Shown: in pieces, positions 1 to 27,813 of the stretch
Position numbering within the stretch: position 1 is the stretch's first letter
Layout: every line of letters begins with the position of its first letter
Virus record (IMG/VR): IMGVR_UViG_2872164251_000001
DNA from: a virus
Taxonomy: Duplodnaviria; Heunggongvirae; Uroviricota; Caudoviricetes
DNA: 46,293 bases
Direction: 5' to 3' (one strand)
Notes under the pieces: generated by a model
Told to the model about the DNA's origin: nothing
The model's input: only the letters and a program-made list of their open reading frames with translations
Databases searched by the model: none
Program-made: the position numbers and the translations under genes

Positions 1-1039
1 TTACCTCGCATTTAAGTAAACCACGTTCTCCTCTTGTGCCGTATTTGTGCCATTGCGACTTATAATCGCATCGATTTTGCTTGCGTGCTCGGTGAGATGC
101 CCGGCTGAAAGGTGGGCGTATCTTTGAACCATTTCGAGAGTTTCCCATCCTCCCATCTCTTTAAGTGCAAGAAGAGAGACACCGGACTGAACCAGCCAGC
201 TTGCCCAGGTATGCCTCAGATCATGGAAGCGGAAGTTGCTAATGCCTGCCCGCTTTAACGCTCCCTTCCATGCCTTGTTGCTGTCGGTTCTCATCTTCCT
301 TACCGCTGCTGTTTTTGTTCCGTCGCTTCGGTAGGCAGGTTTGGTGTGGACAAATACCCATCTCTTATGGAGCCCCTGCTGTTTTCTTAATATCTGGCAT
401 GCGGTTTCGTTAAGAGGAACTCCGATCGCATTGCCAGCTTTTGTTTCATCAGGGTGCATCCATGCCATTTTCTTATCCAGATCGACCTGTGACCACTCAA
501 GGTCTGTAACGTTGGAACGGCGAAGGCCTGTCGTGATTGCAAACATGACCACAGGGAAGAAGTGAGGAGCAATTTCTGCAAACAGGCGCTTCGATTCCTC
601 CTCTGTAAGCCATCTGATGCGTCCATTCTTAACGCGTGGTGTTGATATTTTGGGTGCCCTGTCAAGCCATCCCCATTCAACAGCCATATTGAGAATGGCG
701 CGAAGTATTGCCAGATGCCTCGTCTTCGTTCCTTTGCTTGCAAGCTTTGGTTTATACTCCGGCACCGGATTGCCAAGTCGCAAACACCTGTCCCGGCTCA
801 TCTCCCAGTTCAGGCGATGGCGGCGGTTTTCCATCCCGTCTACCGCCTCCATTATTTTTTCTGTTGTTATGTCAGAGAGAATGGCTTCTCTGAAGTGCAA
901 CATCCAGAACGATATAATGCTCTTGTCATCATCAATGGACTTCTTATCCGATTTCTCACGCAGCCACCGTATGCAGGCTTCCTTGAATAGCTTTTTCGGT
1001 GATTCCCCGAGATTTTTTACTCTCCACGCTTTGAAGTGG

Positions 1040-2208
<1,169 letters not shown>

Positions 2209-2289
2209 TGGAGCACCTGTGTTGTTCTGAGGTGAGCATATCACCTCTGTTCAGGTGGCCAAATTCAGTGTGCCACTTCACTTCTGCTT

Positions 2290-2637
2290 TCAGACGATCG
2301 TGAAGTTCTTGCGCTTGCCTTTTGTCCGATGTTTCAAGAGAGCGTCTAACTCTTGATCCATCTGGCGCGACGAAATCGCAGTGCCACGTGCCACCGCGTA
2401 GTTTGATTGACATGCTTTAACCTCCTGCACATCAACCGCATTCACCGCGCTATTGTGTCTCACAGACTTAAGCGCCGCAATGCAGTCTGACTTGCAAATG
2501 CGATATGGGCTTTTAGGTTTATCTGGATTTATCTTTACGGCCTGAAGTCGTCCACTTCGTATCCACTGCGTGATAGTGCCTTTGTCTACCTTCAGATACG
2601 ACGCTGCCTCTTCACGAGTGAAGATTTCTTCTTCCAC
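2290..2637 (-). CDS. xis: Excisionase-like DNA-binding protein (AlpA/Xis-type HTH), GTG start
   Basis: MEEEIFTREEAASYLKVDKGTITQWIRSGRL HTH; directly upstream of and overlapping integrase start; GGAG 7 nt before GTG. Confidence 0.6.
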   Translation of the reverse strand: MEEEIFTREEAASYLKVDKGTITQWIRSGRLQAVKINPDKPKSPYRICKSDCIAALKSVRHNSAVNAVDVQEVKACQSNYAVARGTAISSRQMDQELDALLKHRTKGKRKNFTIV

Positions 2638-2727
2638 CTGGAATCTCCATTTATTGGATTGGTATTATTGCGGTAGGTCTGGATATCATTGAGCAATGAA
2701 CAGGCCTCATCGAGTATGAGGCTGTGG

Positions 2728-2975
2728 TTAGTCCTTGCGTAACTCGCTAATTCTTCTGTAAGTCTCTGGTGCTTTGTTTCCGTGTATCTTCATTTCAGAC
2801 TTCAACAGATCAACGAGGGAATCCCATTCGTTGAGGATGCCTTTGAATGCCGGAACGCGCTTTGCAACCTTGTCGAATGAATCTCTGATTTCTGGGATCT
2901 GCTCAACAAGTGCAACGCATCGTCTGAAATCGGCTGCGTCATGGGGAGCGCCGAAGTGATGACCATAGATATTCT
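2728..2975 (-). pseudogene. 3' fragment of an early-region gene, 5'-truncated at the IS629-like junction
   Basis: Frame open from IS boundary: ...NIYGHHFGAPHDAADFRRCVALVEQIPEIRDSFDKV...ELRKD stop; no start codon. Confidence 0.3.
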
Positions 2976-3017
2976 TGAACCGCCCCGGGTTTCCTGGAGA
3001 GTGTTTTATCTGTGAAC

Positions 3018-3908
3018 TCAGGCTGCCAGATCATCGTTTCCGATGGAAGCATAATAAGCTTTTTCTGCTTCTGCCGGAGGGATGTGGCCCAGCCTTTCCA
3101 GCAATCGTCGATTGTTATACCAGTCCACCCACGTTAGTGTGGCCAGTTCCACTTCTGCACGGTTTTTCCAGCTCTTACGGTGTATTACCTCCGCTTTGTA
3201 AAGACCATTGATGCTCTCCGCCATCGCGTTGTCATACGAGTCGCCTGTACTTCCTGTTGATGCCAGTAATCCGGCTTCCTTAAGCCGCTGTGTGTAGGCC
3301 AGCGATACATACTGAGAACCTTTATCACTGTGATGGACCGTGCCGGACGGTCGACGGGCCCATAACGCCTGCTCCAGTGCATCCAGCACGAATGTCGTTT
3401 CCATGGACGATGAGACCCGCCACCCCACGATGTATCCGGCAAACACATCAATGATGAACGCCACATAGACGAAGCCCCTCCATGTGCTGACGTAAGTAAA
3501 ATCAGCCACCCACAGCTGGTCAGGTCGTTCTGCCACGAACTGACGGTTTACGCGGTCGCCTGCGGCAACGGCTTTCCGGCTGATGGTCGTACGGACCTTT
3601 TTACCCCGGAGAACACCGGCAAGTCCCATAACCGCCATGAGACGTGCCACAGTGCATCTGGCCACTCTGATACCTTCCCGTAACAACTGACGCCAGACTT
3701 TACGCACACCGTATACCTTGTGATTTTCATCGTATACGCGCTGTATCTCTTTCTTCAGCCAGTCATCGCGCTGCGCACGGGCACTGCGTTTATCCGGATG
3801 ATGTCGCTGTTGCTGACAGTGGTAATACGTTGACGGGGCAATATGCAGTTCGCTGCATAGCGGTCCGACCCCGTACTGCTCACGCAGCTTATCCAGCAGT
3901 GGCATCAT
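3018..3908 (-). CDS. IS629-like OrfB transposase
   Basis: 296-aa IS3-family DDE transposase ORF overlapping OrfA. Confidence 0.8.
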
Positions 3909-4171
3909 TTTTTCCAGAGGCGGTCGAACTCCGCCTTCGCAAAATAAGCGGAAGCCTGGCGAAGGATATCGTTACTGCGGCGCAGTTCACGATTTTCACG
4001 CTCCAGCTCTTTCAGACGCTGACGTTCAGCGGTGGTGAGCCCTCCATCACCGCCCCCGGTATCCCGCTCATGCTGGCGAACCCAGACACGCAGAGTCTCC
4101 GGCGTACTTTCCAGAACCATACGGACTGCCCGTTGACGGACTTCGGGGGAAAAACGAGTATTTTTAGTCAT
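3905..4171 (-). CDS. IS629-like OrfA (shortened)
   Basis: [37 protein letters not shown]... Confidence 0.75.
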
Positions 4172-4225
4172 CCTGTTTACCTCCTTCTCAGGAAGTTTAG
4201 TCTCCAGGATTCCCGGGGCGGTTCA

Positions 4226-4645
4226 TCGTGCGAGGAAATGACAATGCTTTTAATTCAACCTGGATTTGGCCTTAGCATCAAAAAAGGGCACATGTTTGGC
4301 GAGAAAGAGTCTCAACGAAAAATGGTGTCGATACAGTTGCCATTTATCAGTATTTATTGGCTAAACAGGGAGGCAACAAATTATTGGTATACCTGCGCCA
4401 GAGCAGCATTTAACGACCCTGACTGGTTTGTGAAAAACCACCACGCAGTTCGTCAGGCAAAGAGAAAGGCCAATACGACATACATGAAGGCGTATCGAAA
4501 AGCATGGAAAGAACACCGCGATCGATACCAACAAGACATGGAAAAGCTTGAATCAGAAAACATGGAATTAAGACGAAAGCTCGGTGAAGCAAAACGAGAC
4601 ATCGATGCTTACAAGCGACTTTTTAATGGTGAAAGCCATGCTTAG
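4226..4645 (+). pseudogene. 5'-truncated nin-region ORF reading out of the IS629-like junction
   Basis: Frame open across IS boundary; C-terminal ...MKAYRKAWKEHRDRYQQDMEKLESENMELRRKLGEAKRDIDAYKRLFNGESHA. Confidence 0.3.
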
Positions 4646-4814
4646 CCCATCCCAATCCCTTCAATACCAGAAAGAAAGCGTCGAGCGAGCTTTAACGTGC
4701 GCTAATTGCGGTCAGAAGCTGCATGTGCTGGAAGTTCACGTGTGTGAGCACTGCTGCGCAGAACTGATGAGCGATCCGAATAGCTCAATGTACGAGGAAG
4801 AAGACGATGAATGA
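4638..4814 (+). CDS. ninF: NinF-like small Cys-rich protein
   Basis: ESVERALTCANCGQKLHVLEVHVCEHCCAELMSDPNSS matches lambda NinF as I recall it; start overlaps upstream stop. Confidence 0.55.
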   Translation: MLSPSQSLQYQKESVERALTCANCGQKLHVLEVHVCEHCCAELMSDPNSSMYEEEDDE

Positions 4815-5529
4815 GTTAATAAATGGCAATGCCATCAAAATGACAAGCATTGAAATCGCTGAGTTGGTTGGTAAGCGTCATGACAATGTGAAACGTACCA
4901 TCGAAACGCTGGCTAAAAATGGTGTTATCCGGCTTCCTCAAATTGAGGATTGTGGAAGAATCAATGGGTTAGGCTTAAATCAAAGTTTTTGTGTGTATGT
5001 GTTCGAAGGCGAACAAGGAAAGCGAGACAGTATTGTCGTTGTAGCCCAGTTGTCGCCGGAATTCACCGCTCGCCTTGTTGACCGCTGGCGAGAGCTTGAA
5101 GAAGCTGCGGTTAATATCCCCAAAACGCTACCGGAAGCGTTGCGCCTTGCTGCTGATCTTGCTGAGCAGAAAATGCAACTGGAAAACCAGCTCGCAATTG
5201 CCGCACCTAAAGTTGAGTTTGCCGATCGCGTTGGCGAGGCCAGCGGAATTTTGATTGGAAACTTTGCAAAGGTTGTTGGAATTGGTCCAAACAAACTGTT
5301 TGCGTGGATGCGCGATCACAAAATCCTTATTGCTTCAGGTTCCCGGCGCAATGTGCCAATGCAGGAATATATGGATCGCGGCTATTTCACAGTGAAAGAA
5401 ACAGCGGTCAACACAAATCACGGAATACAGATATCGTTCACCACAAAAATCACCGGGCGTGGTCAACAGTGGCTGACCAGAAAGCTGCTCGATAATGGAA
5501 TGCTGAAAGTAACAGGGGAGGCTGCTTAA
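4807..5529 (+). CDS. Rha-family regulatory protein with C-terminal ANT/KilAC antirepressor domain
   Basis: MTSIEIAELVGKRHDNVKRTIETL Rha-like N-terminus; ADRVGEASGILIGNFAKVVGIG ANT-like C-terminus. Confidence 0.7.
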   Translation: MNELINGNAIKMTSIEIAELVGKRHDNVKRTIETLAKNGVIRLPQIEDCGRINGLGLNQSFCVYVFEGEQGKRDSIVVVAQLSPEFTARLVDRWRELEEAAVNIPKTLPEALRLAADLAEQKMQLENQLAIAAPKVEFADRVGEASGILIGNFAKVVGIGPNKLFAWMRDHKILIASGSRRNVPMQEYMDRGYFTVKETAVNTNHGIQISFTTKITGRGQQWLTRKLLDNGMLKVTGEAA

Positions 5530-5819
5530 TGGCTAATCTACGCAAAGAAGCACGCGGCAGAGAATGCCAGGTACGTATTTACGGCGTATGCAATGGTAAT
5601 CCTGAAACTACAGTTCTGGCACATTACCGGATGGCTGGAATTTGCGGAACGGGAATGAAGCCTGACGACCTGATCGGCGCATGGGCTTGTAGCGCGTGTC
5701 ACGATGAAATCGACCGACGCACCCATAATCTCGACAACAAAGACGCCAGACTTTACCACCTCGAAGGCGTGATCAGGACGCAGGCGATACTGCTGAAGGA
5801 GGGGAAGATTAAGTCATGA
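5529..5819 (+). CDS. DUF1364 (YbcO-like) putative nuclease
   Basis: ARGRECQVRIYGVCNGNPETTVLAHYR...ACSACHDEIDRRTH; position upstream of rusA. Confidence 0.7.
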   Translation: MANLRKEARGRECQVRIYGVCNGNPETTVLAHYRMAGICGTGMKPDDLIGAWACSACHDEIDRRTHNLDNKDARLYHLEGVIRTQAILLKEGKIKS

Positions 5820-6178
5820 GCGAATATCAGTTTGTGCTTCCATACCCGCCGTCGGTGAACACCTACTGGCGAAGACGGGGAAACCAATACTACATCAGCG
5901 ATAAAGGCCAGAAATACCGAAAAGAAGTTCAGCAAATAATCCTCCAACTCAAGTTAGACATTTTCACCAAATCACGACTCCGCATCAAAGTCATCGCAGA
6001 CGTTCCAGACTCCCGCCGCCGCGACCTCGATAACATCCTGAAAGGTTTACTCGACTCCCTTATCCACGCCGGATTTGCGGAAGACGACGAGCAATTCGAT
6101 GACATTCGCGTAATTCGTGGTGTGAAAGTACCAGGCGGAAGGCTTGGAATAAAAATCACCGAACTGGAGAACGTATGA
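5816..6178 (+). CDS. rusA: RusA Holliday-junction resolvase
   Basis: LPYPPSVNTYWRRRG...RRRDLDNILKGLLDSL...GGRLGIKITE. Confidence 0.85.
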   Translation: MSEYQFVLPYPPSVNTYWRRRGNQYYISDKGQKYRKEVQQIILQLKLDIFTKSRLRIKVIADVPDSRRRDLDNILKGLLDSLIHAGFAEDDEQFDDIRVIRGVKVPGGRLGIKITELENV

Positions 6179-6363
6179 ACGCCACAATTCAAACGATACC
6201 AGAGCTTCTTATCCAGACACGAGGCAATCAGACCGAAGTGGCGAGGATGCTTTCCTGCGCAAGAGGAACAGTGCTCAAGTACAACCGAGACAGCAAAGGC
6301 GAGCGTCACGTAATAGTTAACGGCGTCCTGATGGTCAAACAGGGCAAGAGGGGAAGACGATGA
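6175..6363 (+). CDS. ninH: NinH-like protein
   Basis: IPELLIQTRGNQTEVARMLSCARGTVLKY...IVNGVLMV resembles lambda NinH. Confidence 0.65.
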   Translation: MNATIQTIPELLIQTRGNQTEVARMLSCARGTVLKYNRDSKGERHVIVNGVLMVKQGKRGRR

Positions 6364-6983
6364 GACTCGAAAGCGTAGCTAAATTTCATTCGCCAAAAAG
6401 CCCGATGATGAGCGACTCACCACGGGCCACGGCTTCTGACTCTCTTTCCGGTACTGATGTGATGGCTGCTATGGGGATGGCGCAATCACAAGCCGGATTC
6501 GGAATGGCTGCATTCTGTGGTAAGCACGAACTCAGCCAGAACGACAAACAAAAGGCTATCAACTATCTGATGCAATTTGCACACAAGGTATCGGGGAAAT
6601 ACCGTGGCGTTGCAAAGCTTGAAGGAAATACTAAGGCAAAGGTACTGCAAGTGCTCGCAACATTCGCTTATGCGGATTATTGCCGTAGTGCCGCGACGCC
6701 GGGCGCAAGATGCAGAGATTGCCACGGTACAGGCCGTGCGGTTGATATTGCCAAAACAGAGCTGTGGGGGAGAGTTGTTGAGAAAGAGTGTGGAAGATGC
6801 AAAGGCGTCGGCTATTCAAGGATGCCAGCAAGCGCCGCATATCGCGCTGTAACGATGCTAATCCCCAACCTTACCCAACCCACATGGTCACGCACTGTTA
6901 AGCCGCTGTATGACGCTCTGGTGGTGCAATGCCACAAGGAAGAGTCAATCGCAGACAATATTTTGAATGCGGTCACACGTTAG
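6360..6983 (+). CDS. Q: Late antiterminator Q, lambda type
   Basis: 207 aa, MRLESVAKFHSPKSPMMSDSPRATASDS... with Cys4 zinc motif CRDCHGTG...CGRCKG; followed by lambda-like PR'. Confidence 0.85.
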   Translation: MRLESVAKFHSPKSPMMSDSPRATASDSLSGTDVMAAMGMAQSQAGFGMAAFCGKHELSQNDKQKAINYLMQFAHKVSGKYRGVAKLEGNTKAKVLQVLATFAYADYCRSAATPGARCRDCHGTGRAVDIAKTELWGRVVEKECGRCKGVGYSRMPASAAYRAVTMLIPNLTQPTWSRTVKPLYDALVVQCHKEESIADNILNAVTR

Positions 6984-7025
6984 CAGCATGATTGCCACGG
7001 ATGGCAACATATTAACGGCATGATA

Positions 7026-7054
7026 TTGACTTATTGAATAAAGTTGGGTAAATT
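7026..7054 (+). promoter_or_regulatory. PR' late promoter (-35 TTGACT, 17-bp spacer, -10 TAAATT) with qut region
   Basis: TTGACTtattgaataaagttgggTAAATT immediately downstream of Q. Confidence 0.6.
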
Positions 7055-7060
7055 TGACCC

Positions 7061-7253
7061 AACGATGGGTTAATTCGCTCGTTGTGGTAGTGAGATGAAA
7101 AGAGGCGGCGCTTACTACCGATTCCGCCTAGTTGGTCACTTCGACGTATCGTCTGGAACTCCAACCATCGCAGGCTGAGAGGTCTGCAAAATGCAATCCC
7201 GAAACAGTTCGCAGGTAATAGTTAGAGCCTGCATAACGGTTTCGGGATTTTTT
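7061..7253 (+). ncRNA. Short terminated late leader transcript (lambda 6S-RNA-like)
   Basis: From predicted PR' start to tR' hairpin; about 190 nt; ends inferred not measured. Confidence 0.5.
7196..7253 (+). terminator. tR' rho-independent terminator
   Basis: 10-bp arms ATCCCGAAAC / GTTTCGGGAT followed by TTTTTT. Confidence 0.6.
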
Positions 7254-7694
7254 ATATCTGCACAACAGGTAAGAGCATTGAGCCGATAATCGTGAAGAGT
7301 CGGCGAGCCTGGTTAGCCAGTGCTCTTTCCGTTGTGGTGAATGCACAGGCTGATGTGTAAGGGCAAGAATCTTTCGCTGGATTCGGTGTGGCCACGTAGC
7401 CAGCTGTAGGCAGTTGCAGCAAACCGGAGATCAGCACCGGTCGCCACAATCCAAACTGAGCCGTAGCCACTGACTATCCTGAATTCATCAGTGATAGTTA
7501 CGCTGCGGCCTTCTACACATGATCTTCGTGAAAGTGGGCGGCATGAGGTTGCGCTAACAACCTAATGCCGTTTTGCCCGTGCATATCGGTCACGAACAAA
7601 TCTGATTACTAAACACAGTAGCCTGGATTTGTTCTATCAGTAATCGACCTTATTCCTAATTAAATAGAGCAAATCCCCTTATTGGGGGTAAGAC

Positions 7695-8018
7695 ATGAAG
7701 ATGCCAGAAAAACATGACCTGTTAGCCGCCATTCTCGCGGCAAAGGAACAAGGCATCGGGGCAATCCTTGCGTTTGCAATGGCGTACCTTCGCGGCAGAT
7801 ATAATGGCGGTGCGTTTACAAAAACAGTAATCGACGCAACGATGTGCGCCATCATCGCCTGGTTCATTCGTGACCTTCTCGACTTCGCCGGACTAAGTAG
7901 CAATCTCGCTTATATAACGAGCGTGTTCATCGGCTACATCGGTACTGACTCGATTGGTTCGCTTATCAAACGCTTCGCTGCTAAAAAAGCCGGAGTAGAA
8001 GATGGTGGAAATCAATAA
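7695..8018 (+). CDS. S: Holin S, lambda type (dual-start MKM)
   Basis: [43 protein letters not shown]... Confidence 0.9.
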
Positions 8019-8478
8019 TCAACGTAAGGCGTTCCTCGATATGCTGGCGTGGTCAGAGGGAACTGATAACGGACGTCAGAAAACCAGAAATCATGGTTAT
8101 GACGTCATTGTAGGCGGAGAGCTATTTACTGATTACTCCGATCATCCTCGCAAACTTGTCACACTAAACCCAAAACTAAAATCAACAGCCGCCGGACGTT
8201 ATCAGCTTCTTTCCCGTTGGTGGGATGCTTACCGTAAGCAGCTTGGCCTGAAAGACTTCTCTCCGAAAAGCCAGGACGCTGTGGCACTGCAACAGATTAA
8301 AGAACGTGGCGCTTTACCGATGATTGATCGCGGTGATATTCGTCAGGCAATTGACCGTTGCAGCAATATCTGGGCTTCACTTCCGGGCGCTGGTTATGGT
8401 CAGTTCGAGCATAAGGCTGACAGCCTGATTGCAAAATTCAAAGAAGCAGGCGGAACGGTCAGAGAGATTGATGTATGA
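8002..8478 (+). CDS. R: Endolysin R (lytic transglycosylase)
   Basis: [52 protein letters not shown]. Confidence 0.9.
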
Positions 8479-8942
8479 GCAGAGTCACCGCGATTATCTC
8501 CGCTCTGGTTATCTGCATCATCGTCTGCCTGTCATGGGCGGTTAATCATTACCGTGATAACGCCATGACCTACAAAGAGCAGCGAGATAAAAAAGTCAGT
8601 GAGCTGAAGCAGGCGACCGCCACCATTACTGACATGCAGCAACGCCAGCGTGCTGCTGATGCACTCGATGCTAAATACACGAAGGAGTTAGCTGATGCGA
8701 AAGCTGAAAATGATGCTCTTCGGCGCAAGCTTGATAATGGTGGCAGGGTGCTCGTCAAAGGAAAATGCCCTGTGCCATCCTCAGCCGAAACCTCCAGCGC
8801 CTCCGGCATGGGCAATGATGCCACCGTCGAACTCTCTCCAGTTGCTGGACGAAACGTTCTCGGTATCCGGGACGGAATTATCCGCGACCAAACAGCACTG
8901 AGAACGCTTCAGGAATACATCAGGACGCAATGCCTTCGATGA
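8475..8942 (+). CDS. Rz: Rz i-spanin
   Basis: N-terminal [32 protein letters not shown] then coiled coil; central region differs from lambda Rz as I recall it. Confidence 0.8.
8695..8901 (+). CDS. Rz1: Rz1 o-spanin lipoprotein embedded in Rz (+1 frame)
   Basis: [19 protein letters not shown] lipobox then Pro-rich segment. Confidence 0.7.
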
Positions 8943-9116
8943 TAGCGATAATTTTACTCATCATCCTTCACATCTGGCTCTGTAGACAGGGGGGTGATCA
9001 CTTCTGGAGTAAATCCAGATTAAACATCTCATTGCTGATGCTTGATATTGAGCATCTGGCGCGCGGTAAGGGGCTGCGTTGAGATAAGAGCCAGTCATCA
9101 CAAACACCAGGATTTA

Positions 9117-9140
9117 GCCTCGCATTCGCGGGGCTTTTTT
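9117..9140 (+). terminator. Putative rho-independent terminator after lysis cassette
   Basis: CCTCGC att GCGGGG stem (one G-U pair) followed by CTTTTTT. Confidence 0.4.
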
Positions 9141-9287
9141 ATATCTGCAACAAACGCGCTTCACACGCGCGACTTATGAACACAGAGCCTTTCAGGATGA
9201 CCCTTGAGGATGCCGGTTTGGTAATCGGTGCCTTTCTGTGGGCCGGAATCCTGTGTGACAAGGTTCATCACTAAAAGGTAATCACTG

Positions 9288-9793
9288 ATGAAGTACCCAA
9301 CAGTTATTGTCAATGGTGTGTCCGTTCGTGTTGATGAGGATGGACGCTACAACTTAAACGATCTCCATGCAGCAGCAGTTGCAAATGGAGAGGCTACAGA
9401 GCAACAGCGCCCAAGCCAGTTTTTGCGTAGCGCGCAGATAAAACGCTTCATAAAAGCACTTTGGAACAAATTCAACCACTTAAAATAATCAAAGGTGGTG
9501 CAGAACCAGGTGTGTGGGGTGTTGAACTTCTGGCAATCAGATATGCAGCATGGATTAAGCCGGAATTTGAAATCGAAGTTTATGAAGTTTTCAAAACGGT
9601 TGTCCGTCTCGGCGTTGGCGCAATGTCCCGTCTGAATAGAATCGATCACATCATCAATACTGAAACCAAAGCGATAAGCCAGTGCGCAAGCCAAATGGCT
9701 AAGTGGGGCGTTGGTGGGCGAAAAAGATTGCTTCATGTTGCACGTGAGAGAGCGGCAAATGAAGTGCAAATGTATTTGCCCGGAATGGTGTGA
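9288..9793 (+). pseudogene. KilA-N domain gene, frameshifted near 9455-9465
   Basis: 9288-9488 (VIVNGVSVRVDEDGRYNLNDLH) and 9461-9793 (GVWGVELLAIRYAAWIKPEFEIEVYEVF) are consecutive parts of one KilA-N domain in different frames; paralog of 20981-21778. Confidence 0.6.
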
Positions 9794-10234
9794 TTTCGCA
9801 GGTTAATCCAGTTTTTGCATTACGGCAGTACCGCGAAACAACCCAAGCCAGTAAGTGGGGAAATAACACTGGCAGCCACTGAAAGATGAACCTCCAGCCT
9901 TATGGCAAAAAAGATTCTTTGTGGTGGCGGACTGATGGAAAGACATCGGTTATTGCAGAGGCCATTCAATGAGTGGTCTCGATAATGGCTTATACCCTAC
10001 ACGGGATAACTTAACTGATATCCCTTTTAACGGATAAACGGAGCCAACAATGGCAGAGATTATTCCCATGACTGAAGAACAGAAATTCCAGTTAGAGATT
10101 TACAAACTGGTTATGAACCAGAACGCAGCCGCAGAAGAAGCATTTCAGTTCATTGGCACTGATGAAGTGGCACACTGAATTTGGCCACCTGAACAGAGGT
10201 GATATGCTCACCTCAGAACAACACAGGTGCTCCA

Positions 10235-11403
<1,169 letters not shown>

Positions 11404-11411
11404 CCACTTCA

Positions 11412-11501
11412 TTTCTTGCCTCAAATGGCAGTACGTTAACTATTCAGTCAAATGGTGCGGCGTTTACTGCCACAACCATCAAGATAATCGCGGAGCAGTG
11501 A
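11412..11501 (+). pseudogene. 3' end of a gene truncated by IS911 (possibly a P22-type tail-needle gene)
   Basis: Frame open from IS junction: FLASNGSTLTIQSNGAAFTATTIKIIAEQ stop, stop overlaps next ATG. Confidence 0.2.
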
Positions 11502-11956
11502 TGATTCAGTTCAAACCAACGCGAAACATCGACCTGATCGAAGCAGTAGGAAATCACACTGACATTATCGCCGGGAGCAACAACGGCGATGGATACGACT
11601 ACAAGCCTGAATGCCGTTACTTTGAGGTTAACGTGCACGGGCAGTTCGGCGGAATTGTTTACTATCAGGAGATTCAGCCGCTAACCTTTGATTGCCACGC
11701 CATGTACCTGCCAGAGATTCGTGGATTCAGCAAGGAAATCGGGCTGGCGTTCTGGCGATACATTCTGACTAACACCACCGTTCAGTGCGTCACATCGTTC
11801 GCTGCGCGCAAATTCCGCCACGGTCAGATGTACTGCGCAATGATTGGCCTTAAGCGTGTAGGAACCATCAAGAAATACTTCAAAGGCGTGGATGACGTGA
11901 CGTTTTACAGCGCCACACGCGAAGAACTAATCGACTTCCTGAATCACGGGAGATAG
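11501..11956 (+). CDS. Hypothetical virion protein, P22 gp14-like by position
   Basis: 152-aa ORF with GGAG RBS, immediately upstream of the gp7-like gene; assignment by gene order only. Confidence 0.35.
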   Translation: MIQFKPTRNIDLIEAVGNHTDIIAGSNNGDGYDYKPECRYFEVNVHGQFGGIVYYQEIQPLTFDCHAMYLPEIRGFSKEIGLAFWRYILTNTTVQCVTSFAARKFRHGQMYCAMIGLKRVGTIKKYFKGVDDVTFYSATREELIDFLNHGR

Positions 11957-11958
11957 CC

Positions 11959-12651
11959 ATGTTATATGCATTTAAGCTGGGCAGAAAACTGCGCGGCGAG
12001 GAACCTTATTGCCCTGAAAAAGGCGGGAAAGGTGGCAGCTCTGATAAAAGCGCAAAGTATGCAGCAGAAGCTCAGAAGTATGCCGCAGACCTGCAAAATC
12101 AGCAGTGGCAGACGATCATGAAAAACCTTGCTCCGTTCACGCCTCTTGCGGAGCAGTATGTTAACCAGCTTCAGAACCTTTCCAGTTTAGAAGGTCAGGG
12201 GCAGGCACTTAATCAGTATTACAACTCTCAGCAGTATAAAGACCTTGCAGGTCAGGCTCGTTACCAGAGTCTTGCTGCTGCGGAGGCGACGGGTGGACTT
12301 GGTTCGACAGCCACAAGCAATCAACTGGCTACGATCGCGCCGACACTCGGTCAGTCTTGGTTATCAAACCAGATGAGCAATTACAACAATCTGGCAAACG
12401 TTGGGCTTGGTGCGCTGCAAGGTCAGGCAAACGCCGGGCAGACATACGCCAACAACATGAGCAGCATTGCACAGCAAAGCGCAGCTCTTGCCGCTGCTAA
12501 TGCCAACAAACCATCAAGTCTTCAGACAGCAATTAGTGGCGGAACGTCTGGTGCGATTGCCGGTGCAGGTCTTGCCAGCCTTTTGGGAACATCAACACCT
12601 TGGGGCGCTGGCATTGGTGCTGGTATCGGATTGCTTGGCTCGTTGTTTTAA
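11959..12651 (+). CDS. P22/Sf6 gp7-like ejection (injection) protein
   Basis: MLYAFKLGRKLRGEEPYCPEKGGKGGSSDKSAKYAAEAQKYAADLQNQQ..., Gln/Asn/Ala-rich, C-terminal glycine-zipper GAIAGAGLASLLG...GAGIGAGIGLLGSLF; recognised from memory of P22 gp7. Confidence 0.55.
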   Translation: MLYAFKLGRKLRGEEPYCPEKGGKGGSSDKSAKYAAEAQKYAADLQNQQWQTIMKNLAPFTPLAEQYVNQLQNLSSLEGQGQALNQYYNSQQYKDLAGQARYQSLAAAEATGGLGSTATSNQLATIAPTLGQSWLSNQMSNYNNLANVGLGALQGQANAGQTYANNMSSIAQQSAALAAANANKPSSLQTAISGGTSGAIAGAGLASLLGTSTPWGAGIGAGIGLLGSLF

Positions 12652-12660
12652 GGGGTAATC

Positions 12661-12714
12661 ATGGCTACTTGGCAAGGATCAAATGGCGGATTATTGGCTG
12701 GTATCGGCGGCGTC
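12661..12714 (+). pseudogene. 5' fragment of next ejection-protein gene (gp20-like) truncated by IS1
   Basis: MATWQGSNGGLLAGIGGV then the IS1 end. Confidence 0.35.
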
Positions 12715-12729
12715 GGTAATGACTCCAAC

Positions 12730-13233
12730 TTACTGATAGTGTTTTATGTTCAGATAATGCCCGATGACCTTGTCATGCAGCTCCACCGATTTTGAGAACG
12801 ACAGTGACTTCCGTCCCAGCCTTGCCAGATGTTGTCTCAGATTCAGATTATGTCGCTCAATGCGCTGAGTGTAACGCTTGCTGATAACGTGCAGCTTTCC
12901 CTTCAGGCGTGATTCATACAGCGGCCAGCCATCCGTCATCCATACCACGACCTCAAAGGCCGACAGCAGGCTCAGAAGACGCTCCAGTGTGGCCAGAGTG
13001 CGTTCACCGAAGACGTGCGCCACAACCGTCCTCCGTATCCTGTCATACGCGTAAAACAGCCAGCGCTGACGTGATTTAGCACCGACGTAGCCCCAATGTT
13101 CGTCCATTTCAGCGCAGACAATCACATCACTGCCCGGTTGTATGCGCGAGGTTACCGACTGCGGCCTGAGTTTTTTAAGTGACGTAAAACCGTGTTGAGG
13201 CCAACGCCCATAATGCGTGCGCTGGCGCGACAT
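12730..13233 (-). CDS. insB: IS1 InsB (expressed as InsAB' by frameshift)
   Basis: 167-aa ORF typical of IS1 InsB. Confidence 0.85.
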
Positions 13234-13427
13234 CCGACGCCATTCATGGCCATATCAATGATTTTCTGGTGCGTACCGGGCTGAGAGGCGGTGTAAGTGA
13301 ACTGTAGTTGCCATGTTTTACGGCAATGAGAGCAGAGATAGCGCTGATGTCCGGCAGTGCTTTTGCCGTTACGCACCACGCCTTCAGTAGCGGAGCAGGA
13401 AGGACATCTGATGGAAATGGAAGCCAC
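13152..13427 (-). CDS. insA: IS1 InsA
   Basis: [43 protein letters not shown]. Confidence 0.85.
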
Positions 13428-13482
13428 GCAAGCACCTTAAAATCACCATCATACACTAAATCAGTAAGTTGGCAGCATTACC

Positions 13483-13839
13483 AACTGGGGGTAATCCGTA
13501 TTTCTCACGGATTACGGAGTCTATTTTTTCTTCCATTTGTTTATAGTCAGGAAGAAGGCGTTTCAGTGGTGCGGGAATGTCCTGGCAATACGCTTCTGTT
13601 GCATCATGCATTAACGCTTCAAAAGCAAATTCCTGCGGCACCAGCTGGCTGCAAAGAACCGCATGTTGGGCGACGCTGTAGAAGTGCGAAAGATGACCGG
13701 CAAAGCGACAGATATTTGAAAGGGAAACCGCGATATCGTTAATATCGATGTCGTCTTTATTTATCCTGTCATAATAAAAATGCTTCCCGGAAAAAGTTTT
13801 AATAAATGACATTTTGTTCTCCACGTATATGCGCTGCAC
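13483..13839 (-). pseudogene. HD-domain protein (YfdR-like), C-terminally truncated by IS1
   Basis: H..HD signature (RFAGH ... LMHDATEAY); reading frame runs into the IS1 end. Confidence 0.5.
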
Positions 13840-13939
13840 CGCGCTGAATTCTGGTAAAAAGAATCCCTCACCATCCGGCGATTATTGAGTAAATTACGTT
13901 TCCATAAATGCCCCCGCAGGGGCATTTGCAGTAATGAAA

Positions 13940-14764
13940 TCAGGCGGTGAAAGTACCAATAAAGGTTTCTACTTTGCTGTCCTTGAATTTCTCAACAAGC
14001 AGATCACGAAATTCGTTAGCCATTTCTTCCTGCACCGCCTCCAGCTGAATAATGCGCAGAACCAGTACCGGACGATCGCCAGTGATAATGCTGAGGCGTA
14101 ATTTAAACGGACGTTCTTTCAGACCTTCAAACGGAATGCATTTAAATTCAAATGCCACTGGCATAATGTCTTTGGTCTTCGCTTCGACAGACTCCATCAG
14201 GGAGCGTTTGCCGCTGAAGTCATTATCTTCAAAATCAGCGGTCTGGTTTGCTTCAATCGTGATTTTACGGACCGCCGCAGCCGCTTTTGTTGCCTGAATG
14301 GTGTCACCATTAGCATCAAAGCCCACAAGGTAGTCGGCCCAGTCTTCAATCCATTCTGCCAGTGATTTCTGGGAGTTACGCTCGCCATTAACAGACAACA
14401 GAGCAGAGAACGGTGCTGTCTTTTTCAGTTTGAGAGTGGCGGTGTTATCTGCGTGACCTGGTTCATCAATAGTACCCAGGTTAAGCACACTGACGGCACG
14501 CATATTATCAGCATCGATAAAGCAGCGGGTGCCTTCATCTGCAAGATCTTTAGAATAACGGGTAAAGTCATCGATGCTGGCAGTGGAAAGCGCACCACGG
14601 AAACGGAAGCGATTTAAATTAAATTTTTCCAGATCATGAATGCGGAAATTCTCAGGCAATGCCACAGCATCGGCACCAATCTTACTGATAATTTCATTAA
14701 CACCCTGAGCAGAAATAAGGGCATGGATTTGATTAATTGCGGTTGCGTCTAAGTTCTGAGACAT
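13940..14764 (-). CDS. YfdQ-like (DUF2303) early-left protein
   Basis: 274-aa ORF, size and position match CPS-53 yfdQ as I recall it. Confidence 0.55.
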
Positions 14765-14829
14765 AATAAGTCCTAACTATATAAAGATATTCAGTGATGA
14801 GATAAATAATCAGTTAATTAAGAACGATA

Positions 14830-15193
14830 TTAATGACCTGCTGCGCGGAGTTTTCCGTCAGGTTCACCGGCAAGAGTCAGTAATTGTCCCTGGTCTTCCT
14901 GCAGAATAGTCAGGCGACCACCGCGATTGACATACATCGGCGTTTCGGTGGTGTCTTCTTCGGAAATTTTCCCGCGGTTAGTCGGGCGAACATATGAGAG
15001 TTTGTGTTTGATTTTCACACGGTTCTCATCAAATGGTTCGATTTCCAGGTTGAGTGAGACCTTACCTTTGGTTTTCGTGTTCATCACACCGGAAGCGACT
15101 TCACTGAGAACTGCGCCGATTTTGGTTTCAAATACGCCGCCGTCCAGCTCCCCGATAAATGCCTGCACATCAGTACTGCGTTCGCTAGCCATT
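14830..15193 (-). CDS. YfdP-like hypothetical early protein
   Basis: MASERSTDVQAFIGELDGG... with GAGGAG RBS; the longer upstream extension in the ORF track looks non-coding. Confidence 0.5.
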
Positions 15194-15629
15194 TTGCTGC
15201 TCCTCATCATATCGACCCTGCAAGGCCGATTAGTTTCTCCACAAAACAGAGAAGAACACCTGCGGTAGCAGCCGCCCGGATGGATTGGGTTATGAGCCCG
15301 TCGTCCGGTGATGCTCTTCTCTGTTTTGTAAAAAGGACGGTACCAGCCGGAAGCAAGGGTACAAACTGGTACCGCCAGGACTACACACAGCATAAAGTTG
15401 TGGTGCCGGGTGCCTCCCGGTGCCTGGCGAAGGTTGCACACCAGACGGGTGGGTATCCACAGAAGGTCGACTGTCAGCCTCAACCTTAACCCGCGTGCGC
15501 TGAGCCGCATTCACCACAACTCTAAGGATTCTCTTTGGTTGAAAATACTTAGCTGTTATGTGCCTGTCTTTTCACCACTTCAGGCTCGGTGGTATCCTTT
15601 TAAGCCCGTATACATAAAAGGAAAATCAA

Positions 15630-15875
15630 ATGACTTTTGATGAAAAAGAACTTGATAATGCAATTAATAAAATCATCGTAACGTCGCTCTTTTCCTGTCT
15701 CAGCGACACTCAGCAGAAACAGTTCTACGAATCGGCTTTCAACATGATCGAGCGTTGTTGTTTCTGCGATGCCGACGAGTTACCTGAAAAAATCAGGAAA
15801 CAGTTGGCTGATGCTCTTCGAGTGCGACTTTCTGACCAATTTTCTGAAATGTGCTCTCCGAATTTGGACAAATAG
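15630..15875 (+). CDS. Hypothetical 81-aa protein, antisense to the early-left operon
   Basis: AGGAAA RBS 7 nt before ATG; 3' end overlaps the convergent 15793-16068 ORF by about 80 bp. Confidence 0.3.
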   Translation: MTFDEKELDNAINKIIVTSLFSCLSDTQQKQFYESAFNMIERCCFCDADELPEKIRKQLADALRVRLSDQFSEMCSPNLDK

Positions 15876-16068
15876 AAAAAGGCCATTTCCATTCAGGGTC
15901 TGATGGAAATACTTCAGCCTGTTCCAAAGCACGGCGTAAAGAGAACACAACTCCAGCCATAATCTGATGTTTCCCATTGGTCCAGCTATCGCCGCTCTGA
16001 TCTACAGGGGCGGCTATGTCGTATGACCAAACGACTTCACAGTTATTGTTTAAAATCTGGACTTTCAT
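15793..16068 (-). CDS. Hypothetical 91-aa protein, first gene downstream of the PL-like promoter
   Basis: AGGTG RBS then ATG (MKVQILNNN...); occupies the N/rex-type position next to cI. Confidence 0.4.
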   Translation of the reverse strand: MKVQILNNNCEVVWSYDIAAPVDQSGDSWTNGKHQIMAGVVFSLRRALEQAEVFPSDPEWKWPFSICPNSESTFQKIGQKVALEEHQPTVS

Positions 16069-16189
16069 TTCATACACCTGCTTTAACATGAGTGCCTAGT
16101 GGCACAACATGACTCAACGAATCATCCTGGACTTCATATGCCCCAGGCGGCTACTTCGTGGGCGTCCTGCCTGTTCGTTGTTTCGCTTG

Positions 16190-16232
16190 GGTACATTATG
16201 TATCCCAAGGGTACATTGTCAAGTATAAAAAA
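16190..16232 (-). promoter_or_regulatory. PL-like early-left promoter with GGTACA-type operator half-sites (OL)
   Basis: Minus strand TTGACA-16 bp-CATAAT; overlapping GGGTACA / TGTATCCC inverted repeat. Confidence 0.45.
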
Positions 16233-16249
16233 ACCTGCCGAAGCAGGTT
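16226..16249 (-). terminator. Rho-independent terminator downstream of cI
   Basis: AACCTGCCGAAGCAGGTT hairpin followed by T-run on the minus strand. Confidence 0.55.
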
Positions 16250-16261
16250 CATAAACATTGA

Positions 16262-16936
16262 TTAGGCTTTGATTTTGTATCTTCTTGGTTTTCCTGAGAA
16301 AATCACTGTACCAATTATAGAGCAATTACCGTTGATCTTAATGTAAGGCTCAGGCCAGTTTGGGTTTAACGCTTTGAGATAACGCTGTGTCCCATCTTCT
16401 ATCAACCTTTTGAAGGTGGTTTCGCCTGTATCGTGCATCAATGCAATAACGTCGTCACCGTGGCAGGCAGGTACTTCAGGATCGACAAAAATCATGTCTC
16501 CCGGGCGGTACTCATCAATCATTGAATCACCTATCACCCGCAAGATATAAGTCATTTCCCCACAGGGTACAGGGCAGGGATACGTTTCTGCTGTGCTCAA
16601 ATCAACCTCAGAATATCCAACTTCTTTCCATGCTCCGGCCTGTACCCATGATATGACAGGGACTAATGTGATTTGTTTATTAGTGATTGAAACATCAGGT
16701 TTTTTTGTGATGTTCGTTGTCTGGTGTTCTTGATCGAGCCATCCGACAGGCAGGTCGAAACATTTTTCGATGTGTCGTGCCATGCTGTCACCGATATTTT
16801 TAGTAGCACCATCTCCCATAAACCTGCTGGTCTGGGTTGGCTCGCGATCAATCATAGTGGCAAAGGAAGAATTCCCGCCAACACCATCTCTCAGTTTTCT
16901 GGCGTTAGACCGCCGGATGTCATGGATTGTTTTCAT
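16262..16936 (-). CDS. cI: CI-type prophage repressor (HTH plus S24 LexA-like peptidase domain)
   Basis: Ala-Gly cleavage site (VQAGAW), Ser nucleophile in VIGDSM, divergent from a Cro-like gene. Confidence 0.85.
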   Translation of the reverse strand: MKTIHDIRRSNARKLRDGVGGNSSFATMIDREPTQTSRFMGDGATKNIGDSMARHIEKCFDLPVGWLDQEHQTTNITKKPDVSITNKQITLVPVISWVQAGAWKEVGYSEVDLSTAETYPCPVPCGEMTYILRVIGDSMIDEYRPGDMIFVDPEVPACHGDDVIALMHDTGETTFKRLIEDGTQRYLKALNPNWPEPYIKINGNCSIIGTVIFSGKPRRYKIKA

Positions 16937-17026
16937 AACGAAATTAAAACCCTTGTACCGTTAAGGTACAAGTGTCTTGGAGGTTCATTTCAATCATGTA
17001 ACATGTACACCGGAGGTACATATTGT
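16937..17026. promoter_or_regulatory. OR region: divergent PRM/PR promoters with palindromic operators
   Basis: Perfect 21-bp palindrome CTTGTACC-GTTAA-GGTACAAG at 16952-16972; ATGTAC-N7-GTACAT further right. Confidence 0.6.
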
Positions 17027-17227
17027 ATGAAAGCGTATTGGGACTCTTTAACCAAAGAACAGCAGGGCGAGTTGGCCGGAAAAGTTGGCTCAACACCTGG
17101 CTACTTACGGCTGGTTTTCAATGGCTATAAAAAAGCCAGTTTTGTGCTGGCTAAAAAACTTGAGCAATGCACGTCAGGTGCAATTACGAAATCTGACTTA
17201 AGACCGGATATCTATCCGAAAGATTAG
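17027..17227 (+). CDS. cro: Cro-like HTH regulator
   Basis: 66 aa, GGAGG RBS, divergent from cI across operators. Confidence 0.65.
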   Translation: MKAYWDSLTKEQQGELAGKVGSTPGYLRLVFNGYKKASFVLAKKLEQCTSGAITKSDLRPDIYPKD

Positions 17228-17258
17228 CAGAACACTTTCAATTTTTAACCACAGAACG

Positions 17259-17822
17259 ATGAGGCTAACCGTGGGTAAGCATCACTGGAAAATAGAAAAA
17301 CAGCCTGAGTGGTACGTGAAAGCTGTCAGAAAAACTATCGCGGCGTTGCCGGGTGGTTACGCTGAAGCGGCTGACTGGCTCGATGTAACAGAAAACGCTT
17401 TATTCAACCGCCTTCGTGCAGATGGCGATCAGATTTTCCCGCTGGGATGGGCAATGGTTTTACAGCGTGCTGGTGGCACTCACTTCATTGCTGATGCTGT
17501 GGCGCAGTCTGCAAATGGCGTCTTTGTGTCTCTTCCTGACGTCGAGGATGTGGACAACGCCGATATCAACCAACGCCTGCTGGAAGTCATTGAACAGATC
17601 GGCAGTTATTCAAAACAGATTCGTTCAGCAATTGAAGACGGTGTAGTGGAACCGCATGAGAAGACAGCAATTAACGATGAGCAGTACCTCTCAATTTCGA
17701 AGCTGCAGGAGCATGCAGCACTGGTCTACAAAATCTTTTGCGTTTCAGAAAGTAGTGACGCCCGCGAGTGTGCAGCTCCGGGCGCCGTGGCATGTCGTGA
17801 CTGTGGAGAAACTAACGCATGA
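17259..17822 (+). CDS. CII-like phage regulatory protein (uncertain family)
   Basis: 187-aa ORF in the cII position between cro and the replication gene. Confidence 0.35.
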
Positions 17823-18175
17823 ACAGTTTAACAACACACTACCGTCGCTCGCAACTGATTGCGCTTCCTGTACCGGGTGGAAAAGCGAAGGTGGAGTATT
17901 GCTATGCAGTAAATGTACCAGGTGACAGGGAAATTGTAACCCACAGCTTTGCAGAGTGGGCTGTGGGTGATTTCAACCGGCAGAAGGAGACAGTCCTTTG
18001 CGACAAGTTAACCGCTGGTTCAAAGAGCACTACGGAGTGCCCGTCAGAGTCATTCGTTGGGAGCCGGAAACACAACGTGTTATCTACCTCCGCGAAGGCT
18101 ATGAGCATGAGTGCTTCAGCCCGCTCGAACAGTTTCGTCGTAAATTCAGGGAAATAGAGGTCGGTCATGAGCACT
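17819..18175 (+). pseudogene. Small early gene with apparent frameshift (N-terminus in one frame, C-terminus in the -1 frame)
   Basis: Frame [32 protein letters not shown]... becomes Ser-rich junk after about 18000 while -1 frame reads [54 protein letters not shown] and ends overlapping the next ATG. Confidence 0.35.
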
Positions 18176-19108
18176 AAATTAACCGGCTATGTATGGGATG
18201 GTTGCGCTGCATCAGGCATGAAATTATCCAGCGTGGCAATTATGGCCCGCCTGGCTGATTTCAGTAATGACGAAGGTGTGTGCTGGCCATCAATTGAAAC
18301 CATTGCCCGCCAGATTGGCGCGGGAATGAGTACCGTCAGAACGGCTATCGCACGGCTGGAAGCAGAAGGCTGGTTAACGCGTAAGGCGCGTCGCCAGGGT
18401 AACCGCAATGCGTCGAATGTTTATCAGCTTAACGTTGCGAAGCTTCAGGCAGCGGCATTTTCTCAACTGTCAGATTCTGACCCGTCAAAATCTGACGCAT
18501 CAAAATCTGACCCGTCAAAATTTGATGCGTCGAAATCTGGCAAAAAAGCGGGTTTTCACCCGTCAGAATCTGGCGGGGATCCGTCAGTAAAATCAAAACA
18601 TGATCCGTCAGATAAAAAAACTTCTCGTCCGGACGCTTCGCAACCGGACACGCAGACGGCTGAACAGGAGTTTTTAACTCGCCATCCTGATGCGGTTGTA
18701 TTCAGCCCTAAAAAGCGCCAGTGGGGAACGCAGGATGATTTGACCTGCGCACAGTGGCTCTGGAAAAAAATCATCGCCCTGTACGAGCAGGCCGCCGAAT
18801 GTGACGGCGAGGTGGTTCGTCCCAAAGAACCGAACTGGACAGCCTGGGCAAACGAAATTCGCCTGATGTGTGTGCAGGATGGTCGTACTCATAAACAAAT
18901 CTGCGAGATGTACAGCCGCGTCAGTCGCGATCCGTTCTGGTGCCGTAACGTGCTCAGCCCGTCGAAGCTGCGGGAAAAATGGGATGAGCTTTCCCTGCGC
19001 TTATCGCCGTCCGTCAGCACGTACACCGAAAAACGCGAAGACCCGTACTTCAAAGCTAGTTACGACAACGTGGACTACAGCCAAATCCCGGCAGGATTCA
19101 GGGGGTGA
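18167..19108 (+). CDS. Replication initiator (lambda O-like) containing origin iterons
   Basis: N-terminal winged-HTH, central repeat-encoded SKSD segment, C-terminal conserved domain; position after cro/cII. Confidence 0.65.
   Translation: MSTKLTGYVWDGCAASGMKLSSVAIMARLADFSNDEGVCWPSIETIARQIGAGMSTVRTAIARLEAEGWLTRKARRQGNRNASNVYQLNVAKLQAAAFSQLSDSDPSKSDASKSDPSKFDASKSGKKAGFHPSESGGDPSVKSKHDPSDKKTSRPDASQPDTQTAEQEFLTRHPDAVVFSPKKRQWGTQDDLTCAQWLWKKIIALYEQAAECDGEVVRPKEPNWTAWANEIRLMCVQDGRTHKQICEMYSRVSRDPFWCRNVLSPSKLREKWDELSLRLSPSVSTYTEKREDPYFKASYDNVDYSQIPAGFRG
18468..18615 (+). repeat. Iteron array (putative ori) inside the initiator gene
   Basis: About 7 tandem copies of CCGTCA(A/G)AATCTGA-like 15-bp units. 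Confidence 0.55.
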
Positions 19109-27193: not shown

Positions 27194-27309
27194 TCATAAT
27201 TCTCAACTGTCTGAGGGGAGGGGCGGGTCAAATCTCTGTGACCTGACGTCTTCCGGACTGCCCGCCCCATCGTTTTTTTATACCCGCGAAAAATGAAATT
27301 TAACCAGGA

Positions 27310-27813
27310 GTGCCGCATATGGCTGGAACGGCGGGGCGTTCCGGGCGTCGCCCTAAGCCAACGGCGCGCAAGGCGCTGGCCGGAAACCCCGGCAAGCGAG
27401 CCCTGAACAAAGATGAACCTGTTTTTACGCCCATCAAAGGTGTTGAGCCACCGGAGTGGTTCGCTGAAGAAGAGCTTCCTCTCGCCACGATCATGTGGCA
27501 ACTGACAACCAAAGAACTCTGCGGTCAGGGCCTGCTGTGCGTGACTGACCTTGCGGTGCTTGAGCGGTGGTGTGTGGCCTATGAGTTCTGGCGGCGTGCC
27601 GTGAAAAATATTGCCAGACAGGGCAACACCATCACCGGTGCAATGGGCGGTATGGTCAAAAATCCGGAGCTGACCGCCAAAAAAGAACAGGAGTCCGAGA
27701 TGAGCAGCACGGGGGCAATGCTCGGACTCGACCCCAGTAGCCGCCAGCGTCTGATTGGCCTGGCGGGGCAGAAGAAAGCCACTAACCCGTTTCTGAAAAT
27801 CATCGAGTCATGA
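27310..27813 (+). CDS. Terminase small subunit (P27 family)
   Basis: [22 protein letters not shown]-terminus. Confidence 0.75.

Follow-up and report, generated by a model that had tools for sequence, protein, structure and literature searches.

The IS629-type element at the locus

The DNA under study is a stretch of 46,293 nucleotides (hereafter the window) from the IMG/VR virus record IMGVR_UViG_2872164251_000001, assigned to the Caudoviricetes. An insertion sequence (IS) of the IS629 type, belonging to the IS3 family, lies on its minus strand at positions 2976-4225 within a prophage remnant. IS629 was first described in Shigella sonnei and has IS1203 and IS3411 as isoforms. The bounds of the element are exact and give a length of 1250 bp; they were defined by the terminal repeats and by alignment to 1310-bp copies, which revealed an internal deletion of 60 bp. 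When the whole window was searched for the 25-nt IS629 terminal repeat only two sites were returned, 2976-3000 on the plus strand and 4201-4225 on the minus strand, the number expected by chance being 0. The left inverted repeat (IRL), TGAACCGCCCCGGGAATCCTGGAGA, lies at 4201-4225 (minus strand) on the orfA side and is the same as the IRL of full-length copies, and the right inverted repeat (IRR) identified by the terminal-repeat search at 2976-3000 (plus strand) reads TGAACCGCCCCGGGTTTCCTGGAGA. Both ends are of about 25 bp, are of the 5'-TG...CA-3' type and match those of IS629. The related contig L004 (IMGVR_UViG_2537561620_000010) carries C as the outermost base of IRR and not T as at window position 2976, so that the conserved terminal TG/CA is destroyed; this T-to-C change reflects continued decay in one lineage or else an error of sequencing.

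The gene layout is that of IS629. The orfB gene (3018-3908, minus strand) encodes the catalytic rve/DDE part of the transposase at its full length of 296 aa, and its product matched the Pfam families rve, HTH_21 and rve_3 and the NCBIfam model transpos_IS3 with 315 bits. The orfA gene (3905-4171, minus strand) carries the deletion and encodes 88 aa compared to 108 aa in full-length copies, as seen from the open reading frame (ORF) list, the alignment, the Pfam family HTH_Tnp_1 and structure models. As orfA ends at 3905 and orfB starts at 3908, the two frames overlap, and a -1 frameshift signal is present: the run of six A residues at the end of orfA lies within the region of an ALIL pseudoknot (RF01497; 3834-3950, minus strand), the stimulator of the -1 frameshift that gives OrfAB, which scored 120.2 bits against a gathering score of 50 over the full model (1-117). 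Because 60 is a multiple of three, OrfAB should still be made, 20 residues shorter. The exact OrfB protein is on record only in Shigella flexneri VA-6, S. flexneri AUSMDU00021847 and one ENA contig.

Alignment to reference IS629 copies gave a single 60-bp gap at 99.4-99.8% identity. The full-length copy of E. coli 504239 (L001:201-1510, 1310 bp, with an annotated programmed frameshift) is 99.4% identical, with 7 mismatches and one gap of 60 columns. The closest full-length copy found, that of S. flexneri VA-6 (L020), is 99.8% identical with 3 mismatches, and a partial copy annotated as 'IS629 family' (L008) is also 99.8% identical. The IS1203-type (O157) and O26-type copies showed 96% identity. 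The ISfinder isoform level lies above about 90-95% nucleotide identity, and the whole-element identity to IS629 falls within it. A megablast search with the element against 5,426 complete E. coli genomes (28 Gb) returned about 30,900 related places, and in the best matches the query was covered by two pieces with a total span of 1310 bp. The nearest full-length relatives, in S. flexneri VA-6 and in S. flexneri AUSMDU00021847 (L021), at 2624-3933, with 3 and about 6 mismatches, are both located inside mlrA beside a phage-type integrase.

Judged from its sequence, the element is IS629 itself, as shown by its two ends, the arrangement of its genes, the signal for frameshifting, the catalytic domain and an identity of 99.4-99.8%. 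It departs from IS629 in length (1250 bp), in the completeness of OrfA (88 aa) and in target duplication. Because the length of 1310 bp and a 108-aa OrfA with a complete helix plus helix-turn-helix (H+HTH) bundle are not found, it is a deletion derivative of IS629 and not a standard member. An earlier note on this DNA had given the same bounds, length and 88-aa OrfA, which the terminal repeats and ORFs bear out; it had also given canonical IS629 as having about 1310 bp and a 108-aa OrfA, which is correct according to the alignment and the OrfA relatives.

The 60-bp deletion and its predicted effect on OrfA

The gap in the alignment corresponds to canonical nucleotides 119-178. In the window the deletion junction lies at 4107/4108 (feature 4106-4109, minus strand), where a 2-bp GT microhomology, present on both sides, leaves a positional ambiguity of 2 nt. 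The missing OrfA residues are 23-42, which read QSEYDSQWATICSIAPKIGC in the E. coli copy and begin with QGEY in other copies. This segment falls in the N-terminal DNA-binding region, in accordance with the earlier note: the coverage of the Pfam profile HTH_Tnp_1 drops from 1-74 in the 108-aa protein to 36-74 in the 88-aa protein, and the deletion covers helix 2 of the structure model. For a 108-aa OrfA homologue AlphaFold2 predicts, with a mean pLDDT of 81, helices at 9-22, 29-40 and 44-60 and a long helix at 67-107, and the model of the 88-aa OrfA has helices at 9-22, 25-38 and 47-87 only, with lower confidence in its N-terminal part. With residues 23-42 mapped on the helices of the 108-aa model, the deletion is predicted to remove helix 2 and the turn from a helix + helix-turn-helix bundle. 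In the models the loss would begin with the loop that follows helix 1 and would include helix 2 entirely as well as the turn, and helix 1 would be fused to the recognition helix. OrfA and OrfAB of the IS3 family recognise their IS ends through this bundle. When IS911 OrfA was aligned, the gap fell over the first HTH helix, and this protein, though shorter, still aligns across the segment absent from the 88-aa OrfA.

The DNA-binding domain of IS2, the best-mapped IS3-family transposase, is an H+HTH bundle made up of three helices, the HTH being formed by helices 2 and 3, and single substitutions there abolish end binding and transposition (PMC3219604). The HTH of IS911 is likewise needed for DNA binding according to Rousseau et al. 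2004, as that work is cited in PMC3219604. It is a well-grounded expectation that the OrfA and OrfAB of the present copy are probably unable to bind the IS ends. The copy is probably non-autonomous because its own OrfAB probably cannot bind the ends; full-length IS629 copies could, at the most, move it in trans.

The lengths of related proteins were compared. A length of 108 aa is shared by nearly all of the best 120 of 2,533 OrfA relatives, and the exceptions are singletons with internal duplications and one protein with a different 16-residue deletion. The singleton variants in public data (P0001-P0010 and P0113) include forms of 133-147 aa with internal tandem duplications and one 92-aa form, whose 16-residue deletion lies in the same N-terminal domain; these variants probably stem in part from assembly errors and in part from other copies in decay.

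A further private change was found just upstream of the orfA start codon. At window position 4184 (element position 42) an A-to-G substitution turns GAAAGAGGT into GAAGGAGGT, a consensus Shine-Dalgarno sequence. Element position 42 is A in 6/6 of the full-length IS629/IS1203 copies compared, from E. coli and S. flexneri.

Flanks of the element and loss of the prophage early region

On the left side the element adjoins the 3' 248 nt (2728-2975, minus strand) of a 345-nt hypothetical gene with no Pfam family, which was recognised by comparison with relatives and adjoins xis in intact ones. The first 97 nt, the 5' end of the gene, have been cut off by the IS; the intact 345-nt version is found at L003:9448-9792. 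In the thrW prophage of E. coli YZ_2_2 the left flank is 99.9% identical and the left gene is whole. The neighbouring gene of the prophage remnant at 2290-2637 (minus strand) encodes an excisionase-like helix-turn-helix protein, as indicated by Pfam HTH_17 and by the annotation in relatives.

On the right side alignment to E. coli O26:H11 11368 revealed the last 16 nt of ninE including the stop codon (TCGTGCGAGGAAATGA) at 4226-4241 (plus strand), the rest of ninE being missing. It is followed at 4244-4645 (plus strand) by an intact gene of 133 aa with no assigned function, which lies between ninE and ninF in many lambdoid prophages, as seen from the alignment and from an exact-protein search. 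The exact 133-aa protein is present in 2,740 blocks of the collection, and the order is always ninE, 133-aa gene, ninF. The claim of the earlier note that truncated ORFs read into the element on both sides stands for 2728-2975 only, since the ORF at 4226-4645 is the ninE stub together with the intact gene, whose frame (ATG at 4244) merely stays open into the IS.

The triplets that flank the element are TCT and TCG, as previously described, and there is no target duplication. A simple insertion of IS629 gives a direct target duplication of 3 bp (sometimes 4 bp). The missing duplication is expected after an IS-associated deletion and is no argument against the IS629 identity. Both flanks keep the orientation of intact prophages and are collinear, but they are not adjacent in relatives. 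In E. coli YZ_2_2 a distance of about 12.7 kb separates the two breakpoints, and the interval between them holds ea-type genes, recombination genes, kil, cIII, N, the repressor gene, cII, replication genes, ninB and a methyltransferase gene. Flanks that are collinear and distant, with no target duplication between them, are the pattern of an IS-mediated adjacent deletion or of inter-IS recombination. The proposal that an IS-mediated deletion had removed most early genes of a lambda-type prophage is supported by this result. The early region is missing from the first prophage of the window only, because a second, SfII-like prophage in the window keeps its own repressor and early genes.

Other IS629-type insertions were observed near the right breakpoint. 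In E. coli O26:H11 11368 (L002) a full-length IS629/IS1203 copy at 6219-7528 is inserted in the 133-aa gene with a CAC duplication, and in O157:H7 380-94 (L009) an independent full-length IS629/IS1203 copy at 303-1612 interrupts ninE at a distance of 69 nt from the end of the gene. IS629 appears to target the ninE-ninF interval recurrently.

Distribution of the deletion allele

The distribution of the allele was analysed with probes over the deletion junction. A 50-nt probe was centred on the junction so that neither half alone can seed a match, and it gave no match in the 5,426 complete E. coli genomes. The method works, because comparable 50-nt flank probes do return short matches. A 131-nt probe over the deletion region found about 21,500 IS629-type places in the same genomes, and 30/30 of the best matches listed are two pieces 60 bp apart. 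The 34-nt junction sequence CGTATGGTTCTGGAAAGTACGCCGGAGACTCTGC was also used as a search probe. It is absent from one genome per bacterial species (GTDB representatives) and from 241 million metagenome records. GTDB presumably merges Shigella into E. coli, and the species-representative test is thus weak for Shigella.

Matches to the junction were obtained in two IMG/VR contigs only, both of the same locus and with 99.95-99.99% identity to the window. The two contigs carry different IMG genome ids, 2537561620 and 2529292715, and a substitution, indels and an IS1 insertion set them apart from the window. The flanks gave a similar result. In the 5,426 E. coli genomes, 50-nt probes spanning the left flank/IS junction and the right one matched only where chance had extended the IS end by 5-8 nt, and in IMG/VR both flank junctions occur only together with the deletion. 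The left junction is present in at least one more genome, because an 875-bp contig of an NCBI draft assembly is an exact match to window positions 2191-3065. The 88-aa OrfA as an exact protein is absent from public assemblies, a result that is partly uninformative as short-read assemblies break or collapse at IS copies. The allele is private and unspread, confined to one locus, and is real and heritable. Though apparently rare and not described before, it is a trivial derivative.

Origin of the locus and alternative explanations

The best explanation, to which we assign a probability of about 0.8, is that the element is an IS629 copy which is decaying and non-autonomous and which remained where an IS-associated deletion had struck the prophage. 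The 60 bp inside orfA have been lost by a deletion at the GT microhomology, in frame by chance. In the proposed history about 10-13 kb of early genes (recombination genes, kil/cIII/N, the repressor gene, cro/cII, replication genes, ninB and most of ninE) would have been removed in an IS629-associated event. This event may have been an intramolecular 'adjacent deletion', in which one IS end attacks a nearby target, or a homologous recombination between two directly oriented IS629 copies. Either route is possible, and the 60-bp and the ~10-13 kb deletions may have occurred in either order. A mosaic pattern of single-nucleotide differences inside the IS, the sign of recombination between two copies, was also considered; the element has only 3 differences from the nearest full-length copy, which are too few to judge. 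IS-driven prophage erosion is routine in S. flexneri, and an IS629-associated deletion is the most economical reading of the flanks.

Certain observations weigh against this history. In the genomes searched, neither flank junction was seen beside a full-length IS or accompanied by an intact duplication, and the role of the IS in the large deletion is for that reason argued from parsimony. The triplets TCT and TCG share 2/3 bases, which allows a mutated duplication at a pre-existing junction. The recognition helix and helix 1 are both kept in the 88-aa OrfA, and therefore some residual end binding could persist. Should the host be Shigella, whose complete genomes lay outside the search, the absence of the allele from E. 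coli carries little weight as a test.

The most probable of the rival explanations is that the copy is still mobile, with OrfAB supplied in trans by full-length IS629, and so is non-autonomous and MITE-like rather than dead. Both inverted repeats are canonical in the window, and ends-only IS629 derivatives have been excised with transposase supplied from elsewhere (bioRxiv 10.1101/2023.06.07.543989). S. flexneri genomes also hold full-length copies that are 99.8% identical to the element. The junction, however, occurs at no second locus in the E. coli genomes, species representatives, IMG/VR or metagenome contigs, and the L004 lineage has a mutated outermost right-end base. A preference for action in cis has been reported for IS3-family transposases, which counts against mobility in trans. 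Such mobility is plausible as a mechanism, but no sign of it was seen and it is considered unlikely. Somewhat less likely still is the loss of the early region by illegitimate or mosaic recombination in which no IS took part, with IS629 inserted later at the junction and its duplication mutated to TCT and TCG. The similarity of the triplets is in line with this, as are the recurrent insertions of IS629 at other sites of the nin region in O26:H11 11368 and O157:H7 380-94, and no parental IS629 insertion was found at either breakpoint in the 5,426 E. coli genomes or in IMG/VR. Nevertheless three coincidences would be needed: the deletion would have to come first, the insertion to hit its junction exactly and the duplication to mutate. 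A match at two of three triplet bases is expected by chance in about 14% of cases. The second IS911 copy of the window (10163-11411) also joins non-adjacent phage modules and has no duplication, which fits a local pattern of IS-bounded deletions.

The remaining explanations concern the 60 bp and have very little probability. If the form with 1250 bp and an 88-aa OrfA were a natural, functional isoform of the IS629 group, the deletion being exactly in frame and the intact ends, pseudoknot and OrfB would be expected; other IS3-family elements have about 1250 bp, and the IS911 copy in the window has 1249 bp. Against this, 0 of the 5,426 E. coli genomes carry the junction in spite of the ~21,500 places that cover the orfA region, and the copies listed carry the extra 60 bp. 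The junction is also absent from the GTDB representatives and metagenome contigs, its sole occurrences belong to one locus, the OrfA relatives (best 120 of 2,533) almost all have 108 aa, and the short IS911 OrfA aligns across the missing segment. Natural members of the short form, which the earlier note had named as the finding that would overturn its reading, were not found in the E. coli genomes, species representatives or metagenome contigs. An equally improbable source of the gap is an artefact of sequencing or assembly in which IS629 repeats were collapsed. IS copies are often misassembled, and the singleton OrfA variants with internal duplications resemble assembly errors; but the same junction is present in the window and in the two IMG/VR contigs, which have different IMG genome ids and are distinguished by a substitution, indels and IS1, and the gap, a clean 60 bp, lies in a single contig between flanks that are unique on either side. 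It is also just conceivable that the 88-aa OrfA, reduced to its zipper, acts as a dominant-negative partner that sequesters the OrfAB of full-length IS629 copies. The idea arises because the C-terminal coiled-coil (leucine-zipper) helix is kept, the DNA-binding bundle is predicted to be non-working and the ribosome-binding site is strengthened (AAGGAGGT). If true, a dead IS copy in an IS-laden Shigella genome would have been recruited to hold IS629 activity in check in trans.

Comparison with known systems

The element resembles IS629, IS1203 and IS3411 in its terminal repeats, its orfA/orfB layout, the ALIL-stimulated -1 frameshift and the 296-aa OrfB with rve. It differs from IS629 in having 1250 instead of 1310 bp, an OrfA of 88 instead of 108 aa that is without helix 2 and the turn, no 3-bp duplication and the private A-to-G change at position 42. 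Internally deleted or truncated IS629 copies have been described in E. coli O55:H7 and ancestral O157, among them a copy in CB9615 with an 86-bp internal deletion (Rump et al. 2011, PMC3271280). Like those copies, the present one is decayed, is found at a single locus and has an internal deletion; unlike the 86-bp case in O55:H7 CB9615, its deletion is of 60 bp and in frame, and every other part is intact.

IS629-linked deletions and excision have been studied in enterohaemorrhagic E. coli (EHEC) in work on the IS-excision enhancer, where microhomology-type junctions were described (bioRxiv 10.1101/2023.06.07.543989). As in the EHEC events, an IS629 end here abuts a deletion of neighbouring DNA. 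In contrast to excision, the IS is retained, and recombination between two IS copies is equally possible. The position of the lesion, in the N-terminal H+HTH domain that is needed for end binding and transposition, is comparable to that in the mutants of IS2 OrfAB and of the IS911 HTH, the latter in so far as they are reported in PMC3219604. Those mutants are engineered point or deletion changes assayed in vitro and in vivo, whereas the present one is a natural 20-residue deletion known from sequence.

Nothing in the locus falls outside known kinds: a decayed IS of an ordinary type marks an IS-associated deletion in a prophage. Ordinary IS activity accounts for the absence of the early region, and no new biology is required. 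The locus records one more step in the IS-driven decay of a prophage at thrW of a probable S. flexneri genome. Strain typing could make use of the unique 60-bp junction and of both flank junctions, which are lineage-specific markers. The locus also offers an IS3-family transposase whose DNA-binding domain has naturally lost 20 residues, which could serve as a ready-made loss-of-binding allele.

Prophage context and host

The part of the window from 1 to about 12714 is the remnant of a thrW-type lambdoid/P22-like prophage. Its order is int interrupted by IS911, xis, the IS629 scar, ninF, antirepressor, YbcO, RusA, NinH, Q, lysis genes, a second IS911 and the P22-like DUF2824 and gp7 genes. The IS911-type element at 1032-2280 (minus strand, 1249 bp) splits the thrW-type integrase gene, with a perfect 3-bp CTT duplication and contiguous int halves, and served as an internal control for a simple insertion. 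This copy is 99.6% identical to the copy in phage SfII, and L004 differs by three single-base indels inside it. The second IS911-type copy (10163-11411) is inverted with respect to the first, is 98.9% identical to it and lacks a duplication, its flanks being TGA and TTT. Through it the lysis-module remnant is joined to the P22-like DUF2824 and gp7 ejection-protein genes (11333-12651), which gives it the look of a second IS-bounded deletion. That an inversion had taken place between the inverted IS911 copies was considered and rejected, as the first copy keeps a perfect duplication and contiguous integrase halves.

A 768-bp IS1 at 12715-13482 cuts the P22 gp7-like gene; the IMG/VR contig L005 is without this IS1 and reads into a different sequence. 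Two prophage remnants are fused at the IS1, and the SfII-like sequence to its right begins from SfII coordinate 27150. The part from 13483 to 46293 is an SfII-like prophage without its own int and xis, with a LexA-like repressor gene at 16262-16936. Its late genes (27196-46293) are 97.9% identical to positions 3-19103 of Shigella phage SfII, and the window ends before the O-antigen modification (gtr) genes. The host is probably S. flexneri, as judged from this SfII relationship, the IS load, the absence of the flank junctions from the E. coli genomes and the exact OrfB allele in S. flexneri.

Between the Q-like gene and the lysis genes of the SfII-like prophage a gene at 23187-24518 (minus strand) replaces SfII 35309-37248. 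It was considered as an IS4 transposase and rejected as such, the family scan having identified the 443-aa product as a KAP-type NTPase. The product shows a weak match to the model of the QatA anti-phage ATPase, and the gene may be a defence-type moron.

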